This document shows, piece by piece, positions 7,659-9,441 of a DNA stretch of 13,750 nt. The stretch lies in UHGV virus genome UHGV-0152983. One strand, written 5' to 3'. Under the pieces are notes generated by a model. It was not told the DNA's origin. It ran no database searches and saw only the letters and a program-made list of their open reading frames with translations. This DNA comes from a virus. The stretch's first letter is position 1; every line of letters starts with the position of its first letter. A program made the translations under genes and the position numbers.

Positions 7659-7744
7659 CACGAAATAAACGTCCGACAAGCACAGCAGCCAATACCTAAA
7701 AACAATATTTTGCCGAATATTCAGTTCGTTATAAAGGTTAAGCA

Positions 7745-8323
7745 TTGAGTATACCAACTGTCTCTCTATGGAATGAGATGGGGTTAATCCCCCCAATAGA
7801 CGAGGCTGATCCTACAAGCCATACTCGTTCCCCATACAAAATGGATATAGTACGCTTTGTTAGTACTTTTTCGCTTAGCCCTGCAAGGATTAAAATCCTT
7901 AAGGGTTTTCTTAACTTTCGTGTTTCACTCACTCAAGCAGGGCTAGTTGAAGGTTTTCAGTGGGTAGATGGAAGCTTCACAGAACATATTGAACTTATTG
8001 AAAAAAGGCCACCGAATGATGTCGATGTTGTGACCTTTTTTCAATTCAGTAATGGCGATAATGATGCAATCGTAATCGGTAGAAAGCCAGAGCTATTTGA
8101 TCATGATTTTGTTAAGAAGGAGTTTTTCGTAGATTCCTACTTCCAAGAACTTAATCTACCAAGTCATGAGCTTGTTGAAATGACTGTATATTGGTACAGT
8201 ATGTGGGCACATAGACGCGATCTGTCGTGGAAGGGATTTATCCAAATCCCGTTAAACCCACAACTTGATGTTGTGGCAATGACTATACTTAATTCGGCTA
8301 CTACTGAGGGGGTCAAACAATGA
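7745..8323 (+). CDS. Uncharacterised protein A, 192 aa, at the rexA position downstream of cI
   Basis: ORF in track with an apparent TTG start at 7745 (AAGG 7 nt upstream); alternative ATGs at 7778 and 7841. No hydrophobic helices. No terminator in the 86-bp gap after cI, so probably co-transcribed with cI. AT-rich. Stop overlaps the start of gene B (ATGA at 8320-8323). Confidence 0.6.
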   Translation: MSIPTVSLWNEMGLIPPIDEADPTSHTRSPYKMDIVRFVSTFSLSPARIKILKGFLNFRVSLTQAGLVEGFQWVDGSFTEHIELIEKRPPNDVDVVTFFQFSNGDNDAIVIGRKPELFDHDFVKKEFFVDSYFQELNLPSHELVEMTVYWYSMWAHRRDLSWKGFIQIPLNPQLDVVAMTILNSATTEGVKQ

Positions 8324-9249
8324 ATCGTAATGATTATGTTTTCGCTCTCAGTGAGCGCGAGCAAATAAGTAATCTATTAAAAAATATGCCAACAAGTCAT
8401 TCTATTAGCCGAAAAAGCTTAGAAGACCGTCTGGAGAAAGTTGAGCGATTAATTTCACAAGCTGACGTTCGAGAACATGAACCTACGCATGCTGTGTTAA
8501 CTTTTAGAGGCCCAACAGTAGTTGGCACGCATGGCATTTCAGCAGTATTTGGAACAAAAGCTATATCTTGTTTTAATGATGCAATAGCTTACTTGGCAAC
8601 CTCTTTCAATGGCCCACTTCCTGCATCAGGCAAGATACCAAACATAGAAAATAATCATCTCATGATTACCGCGTCAGCCCGTGGTTCTTTCGGATTCGTA
8701 CTTGAAGAGTTTAGACCTGATGCTCCTCTTGAATTCGATGAAGAAACCCCAGTAGCAAAAGCTATTAATAAGGCCAGAAAAATATTTCAGGCAAGCTTGG
8801 ATAATGATGATGAAGAATTGTCTGATGCTATAGAAAACTTAGACTCTCGGGCCTTAGATAAAATCAGAGCATTCATTCATTATCTGCATGAAAATAAAAC
8901 AGTTTTTACACTTAAAAGCCAAGGTTTTAGCATCGTTTTTAGAGAGCCAAAACAGCTTGAAGCTGTATATCAACATCTCAGCAATGATAACATTCAGCAG
9001 GAAAAAATTATTGAGAACGTTATATTTTTGGGAACTCTTCCTAACAAGCGCCAATGTGAATTTATAGTTTTAGGTAACACTGATATCAGAACCGCTAGCA
9101 TTGACAAAGCTGTAGATGACCCAGATATTATAAACAAGCACTTAGGAAGCGTTGCAACAGCCACGTTCCTGAAAAAAACTGTTGGTAAGGGCAAGCCCAG
9201 ATACACTCTGGTTTCTCGACCTCAATGGGATATTAAATCAATCGATTAG
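8320..9249 (+). CDS. Uncharacterised protein B, 309 aa, at the rexB position
   Basis: ORF in track; ATG overlaps the stop of gene A; soluble-looking; no Walker motifs; followed by a strong terminator. No family recognised by eye. Confidence 0.65.
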   Translation: MNRNDYVFALSEREQISNLLKNMPTSHSISRKSLEDRLEKVERLISQADVREHEPTHAVLTFRGPTVVGTHGISAVFGTKAISCFNDAIAYLATSFNGPLPASGKIPNIENNHLMITASARGSFGFVLEEFRPDAPLEFDEETPVAKAINKARKIFQASLDNDDEELSDAIENLDSRALDKIRAFIHYLHENKTVFTLKSQGFSIVFREPKQLEAVYQHLSNDNIQQEKIIENVIFLGTLPNKRQCEFIVLGNTDIRTASIDKAVDDPDIINKHLGSVATATFLKKTVGKGKPRYTLVSRPQWDIKSID

Positions 9250-9263
9250 AATGAGCCCCTTCA

Positions 9264-9291
9264 GCCCGGCCTCCGCGCCGGGTTTTCTTTT
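9264..9291 (+). terminator. Rho-independent terminator ending the cI-A-B transcription unit
   Basis: CCCGGC (9265-9270) / GCCGGG (9277-9282) stem with 6-nt loop, followed by TTTTCTTTT (9283-9291). Confidence 0.8.
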
Positions 9292-9441
9292 ACCATCAGC
9301 CCGTCAAAAACACACCTAACGAATTGTATTTATTGAATAAATATAAATCACACTTATCACATTGCGCAATTCAGCTCCTACACATCCAGACTAGCTCTGC
9401 AAAACTTTAAAAAAATAAATCAATAGTAAAAACATGCACAT

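Follow-up and report, generated by a model that had tools for sequence, protein, structure and literature searches.

The 13,750-nucleotide (nt) stretch of the virus genome UHGV-0152983 that was analysed here, referred to as the window, is the immunity region of a lambdoid prophage, and the slot that holds rexA-rexB in phage lambda, downstream of the gene for the cI repressor, is occupied in it by a different two-gene cassette. Its first gene, A, encodes a 192-residue protein of the Pfam family DUF6932 that is predicted to be a divergent minimal nucleotidyltransferase whose catalytic residues are all preserved; its second gene, B, encodes a 309-residue non-membrane protein that belongs to no known family. 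The two genes are inherited together across bacteria and archaea and travel as a mobile cargo behind prophage repressors, a combination that makes them a plausible defence or exclusion module of the lysogen.

The A-B pair is an obligate, co-inherited unit that has co-diverged from Escherichia coli to Planctomycetes and methanogens. A total of 90 loci were examined, the window included, of which 82 had been fetched through B alone (49 from a set with a single genome for each species, 33 from IMG/VR); at 80% B identity the 90 loci form 56 clusters. A DUF6932 gene lies immediately upstream of B, on the same strand, in 88 of these loci, and in the remaining two the contig (991 and 1,239 bp) stops short of where A would be. 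In the reverse direction, all eight look-ups begun with an A homologue led to a B homologue as the next gene downstream. Co-occurrence of the two genes elsewhere had been set beforehand as a check on the first-pass annotation, and the genes turned out to be paired wherever a locus had space for the two of them. The stop codon of A overlaps the start codon of B in 43 of 54 representative loci, mostly by 8 or 4 nt, and the pairwise identities of the two proteins are correlated (Mantel r = 0.85; none of 2,000 permutations reached this value). Mean identity is 39% for A and 30% for B, A being the more conserved partner. Among bacteria, the pair was found in Enterobacterales, Xanthomonadales, Rhodobacterales, Burkholderiales, Planctomycetota, Cyanobium, Leptospira, Lentisphaeria and Desulfuromonadales, and among archaea in two Methanomicrobiales.

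According to the first-pass annotation, neither protein could be assigned to a family. This holds for B and not for A, which matches DUF6932 (PF22014) with E = 2e-26 and 93.6 bits against a cut-off of 27, over profile positions 3-141 of 142. The same family is the only one matched by the A sequence and is also matched by all 32 aligned A homologues; in the PHROG collection A corresponds to phrog_9194. Residues G76-S77, D92-x-D94 and D130 are invariant across the 32 homologues (37-85% identity) and conform to the hG[GS]...DxD...D pattern, and a YWYS..H.R..WKG block is kept as well. In the AlphaFold2 model of A (pLDDT 90.9), the catalytic motif residues are located on strands 69-75, 93-100 and 129-135. 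The closest structural matches of this model are aminoglycoside nucleotidyltransferases and minimal nucleotidyltransferases of the MNT type, with a weak resemblance to CD-NTases and HalB. The conserved residues, together with the modelled fold, suggest that A is a divergent minimal nucleotidyltransferase of the Pol-beta type, presumably an active one.

The partner protein B has no match in Pfam or NCBIfam, nor in PADLOC at E <= 1, and corresponds to phrog_18731, a PHROG family without a named function. A search of sequences in the Protein Data Bank (PDB) with the B profile gave nothing credible, the best match being a BAG domain with E = 0.036, and 132 family members, retrieved by the B profile at E < 1e-56, showed only scattered chance matches to Pfam. 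The family is nevertheless large: a word-indexed search returned 31 clusters only, whereas a profile search that covered 1.84 billion cluster representatives returned 1,466 clusters (50% identity) at E <= 1e-3, of which 608 also pass E <= 1e-30. With few exceptions the relatives are 295-325 residues long and are matched end to end. The predicted structure (pLDDT 86.3) is a mixed alpha/beta fold with a barrel, made up of an N-terminal helical hairpin, a central sheet with a Gly-rich beta-hairpin, an acidic helical region and a C-terminal OB-like barrel. The beta-hairpin of the central sheet bears the motif RGSFGFxLEE, whose Ser123 is invariant in all 132 diverse sequences, as are G64 and F77. 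Residues R37, R177, G122 and F124-G125-F126 are at least 96% conserved in the same set, and E129 and E247 about 88%; Ser123, Arg37 and Arg177 are the strictly conserved polar residues of the protein. No catalytic dyad or triad is apparent across the 132 members, nor any recognisable enzyme signature. A serine hydrolase was weighed and set aside, as the GSFG sequence lies on a beta-hairpin and not on a nucleophile elbow and there is no conserved His/Asp or Lys partner. We take B to be a non-membrane partner outside the known families.

The cro-cI DNA is about 92% identical to that of lambda, SfI, HK97, mEp234 and HK106, and homology to the lambda-immunity phages breaks at 7654-7658, at the cI stop codon. 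What follows cI varies among phages that share it: rexA-rexB in lambda and SfI, gp49/gp48 in HK97, and a HicA-like toxin, a HicB-like antitoxin and one further gene in mEp234. In a related prophage of E. coli N32, which has a different, LexA-family repressor, the slot contains DUF3024, a RuvC-like gene and a Ser/Thr kinase gene. The interval between cI and N has been described as a mosaic hotspot that contains abortive-infection genes (rexAB, bstA) and is carried along by the heavily transcribed promoter of the repressor (PMC8585504, citing Degnan et al. 2007); since the slot has already been described, the new element is its occupant. The viral contig L066, which has a different S24 repressor of 250 residues, shares with the window only positions 7653-9294, at 92% DNA identity, and in two further contexts similarity likewise runs out at 9294, where the terminator that follows B ends, or shortly before it. 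The 1.64-kb segment 7653-9294 is a self-contained mobile cargo cassette of the repressor-to-N slot, consisting of a leader, A, B and the terminator; the leader (7659-7744) moves with it, the homology to L066 beginning at 7653. The identical cassette is rare, being present in 8 of 5,426 complete E. coli genomes, including that of the meningitis strain CE10. The window itself is a mosaic: its central part, 3247-10810 (7.5 kb, from the primase gene to the Nmad5 gene), is 99.9% identical to the CE10 prophage, the flanks 1-3246 and 10811-13750 are different from it or only 78-81% identical, and the window as a whole has no end-to-end match in any complete E. coli genome.

Beyond this particular phage, the pair recurs just downstream of at least five different prophage immunity or repressor types, in the orientation of the repressor gene. 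These are lambda cI in the window, the 250-residue S24 repressor in L066 and, with diverged versions of the pair, a Proteus cI followed by DUF3024, a Rac-type repressor of 131 residues accompanied by YdaS/YdaT (in Klebsiella and others), and a 135-residue helix-turn-helix repressor in Photorhabdus. Among the three genes upstream of the pair in the 54 representative loci, HTH_3 was seen 12 times, Peptidase_S24 seven times, YdaS/YdaT four times and Cro three times. At some other loci the pair keeps company with defence genes. It is inserted into a type I restriction-modification operon, with a fused hsdM-hsdS gene on one side, hsdR on the other and a SNF2 helicase upstream (4953-12658 of locus L102, and likewise in L103), and in locus L006, not far from an integrase, its neighbours are DUF4238, SMODS and a Tle1-like lipase. 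No more than three genes away from the pair we found Drt2 (three loci), Drt8, Avs3, DpdF, PsyrT, PtuB, subunits of type I restriction-modification systems, Mrr and CcdB. This association is suggestive, as it consists of individual examples and not of a background-corrected enrichment. In a separate observation, DUF3024 was found directly after the repressor gene and before variable cargo in two unrelated prophages (5614-5949 of locus L002 and 7422-7763 of locus L099), the cargo behind it being A-B in Proteus and the RuvC-like and Ser/Thr kinase genes in E. coli N32; DUF3024 may be a conserved companion of the slot.

The local signals of the window are consistent with expression of the cassette in the lysogen. 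Its + strand corresponds to the leftward direction of lambda. The cro gene (6644-6844, - strand) is followed by an operator that exactly matches lambda-type OR1 (6871-6887) and by a PRM-like promoter (6910-6938, + strand) with the hexamers TAGATA and TAGATT, which we take to be those of lambda PRM, separated by 17 nt, with 7 nt between the end of the promoter and the ATG of cI. The cI gene (6945-7658, + strand) encodes a 237-residue repressor of the lambda immunity type with HTH_3 and Peptidase_S24 domains. The leader or spacer of the cassette (7659-7744, + strand) is 86 nt long, AT-rich (GC 0.372) and unstructured; its + strand contains no terminator-like site and folds no better than shuffled sequence. 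A promoter internal to the cassette was considered too, and no promoter-like site was found in 7659-7744. Gene A (7745-8323, + strand) begins with a TTG codon, the same start that PGAP called in E. coli CE10, and the resulting N-terminus aligns with those of the homologues. It is joined to gene B (8320-9249, + strand) by a translational coupling element (8306-8323, + strand) in which the Shine-Dalgarno sequence GAGGGGG (8306-8312), inside the 3' end of A, precedes by 7 nt the ATGA stop/start overlap at 8320-8323. The intrinsic terminator that closes the cassette (9263-9291, + strand) occupies a tIMM-like position and consists of an 8-bp stem with six G-C pairs (9263-9284) followed by TTTTCTTTT, with a folding energy of -14.6 kcal/mol. 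The end of the slot is marked by the PL promoter (9476-9504, + strand; TTGACG, 17 nt, GATACT), with an OL1-type operator inside it (9486-9502), and beyond it lies the N antiterminator gene (9622-9966, + strand; Pfam N_peptide, E = 7e-32). Both A and B must be real genes, because each has hundreds of diverged homologues, and co-transcription of cI, A and B in the lysogen by read-through from PRM is the most likely arrangement suggested by these signals.

The first-pass annotation had described most of this layout, and its account stands in the main points: a two-gene cassette in the lambda rexAB slot, whose cargo indeed varies among phages with the same cI; an extent of 7659-9295, almost exactly that of the moving unit; coupling of a 192-residue and a 309-residue protein through the ATGA overlap, to which the Shine-Dalgarno sequence can now be added; a strong terminator after B and none between cI and A; and a lambda-like cI, OR, OL and PL, borne out by the operators, the hexamers and the DNA identity of cI. 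Its statement that neither protein resembles RexA or RexB or has hydrophobic helices was likewise upheld by PADLOC, Pfam, PHROG and the hydropathy profiles, in which the maximum 19-residue Kyte-Doolittle values are 1.13 for A and 1.16 for B, so that no transmembrane segment is predicted in either. The two genes had also been called visibly more AT-rich than cI; the direction is right, yet the difference is modest (GC 0.404 for A, 0.385 for B and 0.393 for both together versus 0.441 for cI and 0.450 for the window), and composition is a weak signal here.

Among catalogued systems the closest entity is PDC-M63, an unvalidated candidate in PADLOC that also comprises two genes and is encoded by a prophage in E. 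coli NILS69. A matches two PDC-M63A models (E = 2.2e-10 and 1.5e-4), whereas the B protein of the window reaches E <= 1 with none of the PDC-M63B models; the locus would accordingly escape PADLOC v2. However, PDC-M63B models are matched by 10 of the 132 diverse B relatives, with a best E of 2e-6, and PDC-M32A by 12 of them. By these profile matches, the pair of the window appears to be a divergent branch of the PDC-M63 superfamily. Full-text literature searches turned up no paper mentioning DUF6932, PF22014, the RefSeq accessions of the two proteins or their PHROG identifiers; DUF6932 is not among the newly validated DUFs of DefensePredictor, and a 2026 paper on a domain-centric screen lacks the terms nucleotidyltransferase, NTase and MNT.

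Several better characterized systems resemble the cassette in position or in presumed logic. RexA-RexB shares with A-B the slot, the orientation, the presumed read-through from PRM, the number of genes and a terminator before OL/PL, yet the analogy is positional only. The two pairs have no sequence relationship, and PADLOC, whose library we take to include Rex models, returned PDC-M63A alone for A and nothing for B. RexB is a polytopic membrane protein, whereas B has no transmembrane helices, and RexA is a protein of the DNA-binding type, whereas A is a predicted nucleotidyltransferase. Homology to RexA/RexB was therefore rejected, the Pfam and PHROG matches being to unrelated families, with no Rex match in PADLOC and no membrane helices. 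BstA, the abortive-infection protein of BTP1, is encoded directly downstream of a prophage repressor gene, just as A-B is, and the architecture of its locus is conserved across heteroimmune prophages (PMC8585504). It is again a positional analogue only: unlike A-B, it is made up of one protein only and comes with a DNA-based self-immunity element, and it has no homology to A or B.

The best mechanistic analogue is MntA-HepT (type VII), in which a minimal nucleotidyltransferase is encoded first and modifies its partner. In that system, however, the partner is a HEPN protein of about 130 residues, whereas B has about 300 residues and a mixed alpha/beta structure with a barrel; no HEPN match for B was found in Pfam or PADLOC, nor among its 132 relatives, and the pair does not belong to the MNT-HEPN class because B is not a HEPN protein. 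A differs from MntA as well, in having extra N- and C-terminal elements and in matching DUF6932 only. AbiEi/AbiEii and MenA/MenT are two-gene abortive-infection or toxin-antitoxin modules with a nucleotidyltransferase enzyme. They are looser analogues, since the AbiE and MenAT toxins are DUF1814 proteins of about 290 residues, whereas A is a 192-residue DUF6932 protein without a match to them. CBASS, Hailong and Panoptes likewise combine a nucleotidyltransferase with one partner and are also looser analogues: A-B matches no SMODS or cyclase model, and B has no membrane or nuclease effector domain.

The reading that we favour is that the pair serves as a defence or exclusion module of the lysogen with a toxin-antitoxin-like logic, and we judge this to be about evenly balanced between true and false. 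It is favoured because of the position in the slot with its expression signals, the mobility with a preference for repressor genes, the obligate pairing, the defence genes in the neighbourhood, the matches to PDC-M63 and the invariance of Ser123 in B. In the lysogen, A and B would be transcribed together with cI by read-through from PRM, translated in a coupled manner and would act as a complex, with A as its catalytic core and B as the substrate, regulator or sensor of A. In the variant that we prefer, modelled on MntA-HepT, A would nucleotidylate B at Ser123 and the pair would thus be held inactive; infection would disturb this balance and cause growth arrest of the infected cell or abortive infection, directed against other phages or mobile elements. 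That abortive infection is indeed gated by covalent nucleotidylation of the invariant Ser123, following type VII-like logic with a non-HEPN partner whose fold would be new, is a tentative proposal which we hold to be considerably less probable than a defence role as such. We are just as doubtful about the broader version of it, in which DUF6932 and B would constitute a new immune or toxin-antitoxin family of bacteria and archaea that uses Ser123 nucleotidylation and has been repeatedly captured into prophage repressor operons.

Several observations weigh against a defence role. The context and conservation support the first-pass suggestion of a lysogen-expressed defence or exclusion module, whereas the only published test of a related pair does not: deletion of PDC-M63AB in its native host, E. 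coli NILS69, had no effect on 10 virulent phages. Among isolated phages, none of 50,697 GenBank phage records carries the cassette or B, as searched by megablast and tblastn. Many other loci, including many non-enteric ones, have the pair among housekeeping genes. Sensing of nucleic acid by B through its OB-like barrel was considered and found to be unsupported, the barrel not being basic across the family (mean net charge about 0). Finally, frameshifts in a single gene occur naturally: in A with B intact in Acidisoma (6397-6983 of locus L032), in B with A intact in a Proteus-type prophage (7001-7890 of L082), and at the C-terminus of B in an E. coli viral contig (7001-7945 of L067). The latter two fall at A-runs and could be sequencing errors; if real, such frameshifts speak against strict antitoxin dependence either way.

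Three other explanations can be set against the reading that we favour. The pair might form a signal-and-receptor (guard) module, in which A would make a nucleotide or short oligonucleotide signal, as CD-NTases, HalB of Hailong and mCpol of Panoptes do, and B would bind this signal through its Gly-rich, Arg-containing pocket and the barrel and then execute or withhold a response. We find this unlikely, given that A has only 192 residues and its closest structures are of the aminoglycoside/MNT type and not signal synthases, that B lacks any recognisable effector, membrane or nuclease domain, and that neither protein matches the cyclase, SAVED or effector models of PADLOC. A similarly low probability is assigned to a selfish toxin-antitoxin addiction module that would stabilize the prophage or further mobile elements without being dedicated to defence against phages. 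Such a module would account for two translationally coupled, horizontally mobile genes that are scattered in chromosomes, prophages and islands, and for the presence of CcdB and HicAB-like genes in similar places; toxin-antitoxin systems made of a nucleotidyltransferase and a partner, such as MntA-HepT, AbiE and MenAT, are well known. On the other hand, strict addiction would be hard to reconcile with the single-gene frameshifts of either partner in assembled genomes, if these are real, and a benefit to the host is suggested by how strongly the pair prefers the lysogen-expressed repressor slot and type I restriction-modification or defence contexts. This explanation overlaps with a defence role, as many toxin-antitoxin systems are themselves defence systems.

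The remaining explanation, that the pair serves the phage itself, in the lysogeny-lysis switch (compare the switch bias reported for RexA), in host physiology or as anti-defence cargo, appears to be the least probable and, in our opinion, improbable in absolute terms. Switch modulators are known to act next to cI, as the RexA literature illustrates, and the PL operon contains, close by, a nucleotide-modification gene (Nmad5). Yet the pair is conserved far beyond lambdoid phages, in methanogens, Planctomycetes, Cyanobium, Leptospira and a type I restriction-modification operon, where a lambda-specific regulatory role cannot apply, and anti-defence genes are as a rule switched on early in lytic growth, not from the lysogenic transcript.

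If the pair does protect against phages, a widespread immune module of about 1,500 sequence clusters would be added to those of bacteria and archaea, and the repressor-to-N slot would gain another mechanistically distinct occupant besides RexAB and BstA. Conflict modules made of a nucleotidyltransferase and a partner, and cargo of the repressor-to-N slot, are kinds already known; the partner here, B, is widely distributed and has no known fold or family. The proposal centres on Asp92, Asp94 and Asp130 of A and Ser123 of B and would tie the pair to toxin-antitoxin control based on nucleotidylation. Because current PADLOC models miss this branch of PDC-M63, the single negative test of PDC-M63 should not close the question.

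Other features of the window concern its flanks and the left operon. Directly after N, in the PL operon, lies a gene for a putative nucleotide-modification protein of the Nmad5 family (9968-10651, + strand; Pfam E = 6e-71), which is annotated as such in CE10 and gives the cassette a second nucleotide-related accessory gene as a neighbour. Further along the early left operon, a 214-residue open reading frame (ORF) at 11151-11795 (+ strand) consists almost wholly of helical repeats rich in Glu, Ala, Lys and Arg, with an AT skew of up to 0.62; in related prophages (L100), the gene found at this place bears the annotation 'cell envelope biogenesis protein TolA'. At the other end of the window, Rfam identifies a C4 antisense RNA (1476-1563, - strand, 84 bits) and the Hfq-binding small RNA isrK (1588-1661, - strand, 72 bits) just upstream of a 228-residue ORF (548-1234, - strand) for which related prophages have a P22AR/KilAC-type antirepressor annotation. 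Together they look like a second antirepressor control module, of the P1/P7-like or Gifsy IsrK type, in the nin region. Between the toprim primase gene and ninB, a 203-residue ORF (2585-3196, - strand) forms an island of low GC content (0.36-0.37). The E. coli N32 prophage has a counterpart with an HNH endonuclease annotation. The stretch is absent from the region shared with CE10, and it may be a homing-endonuclease insertion.

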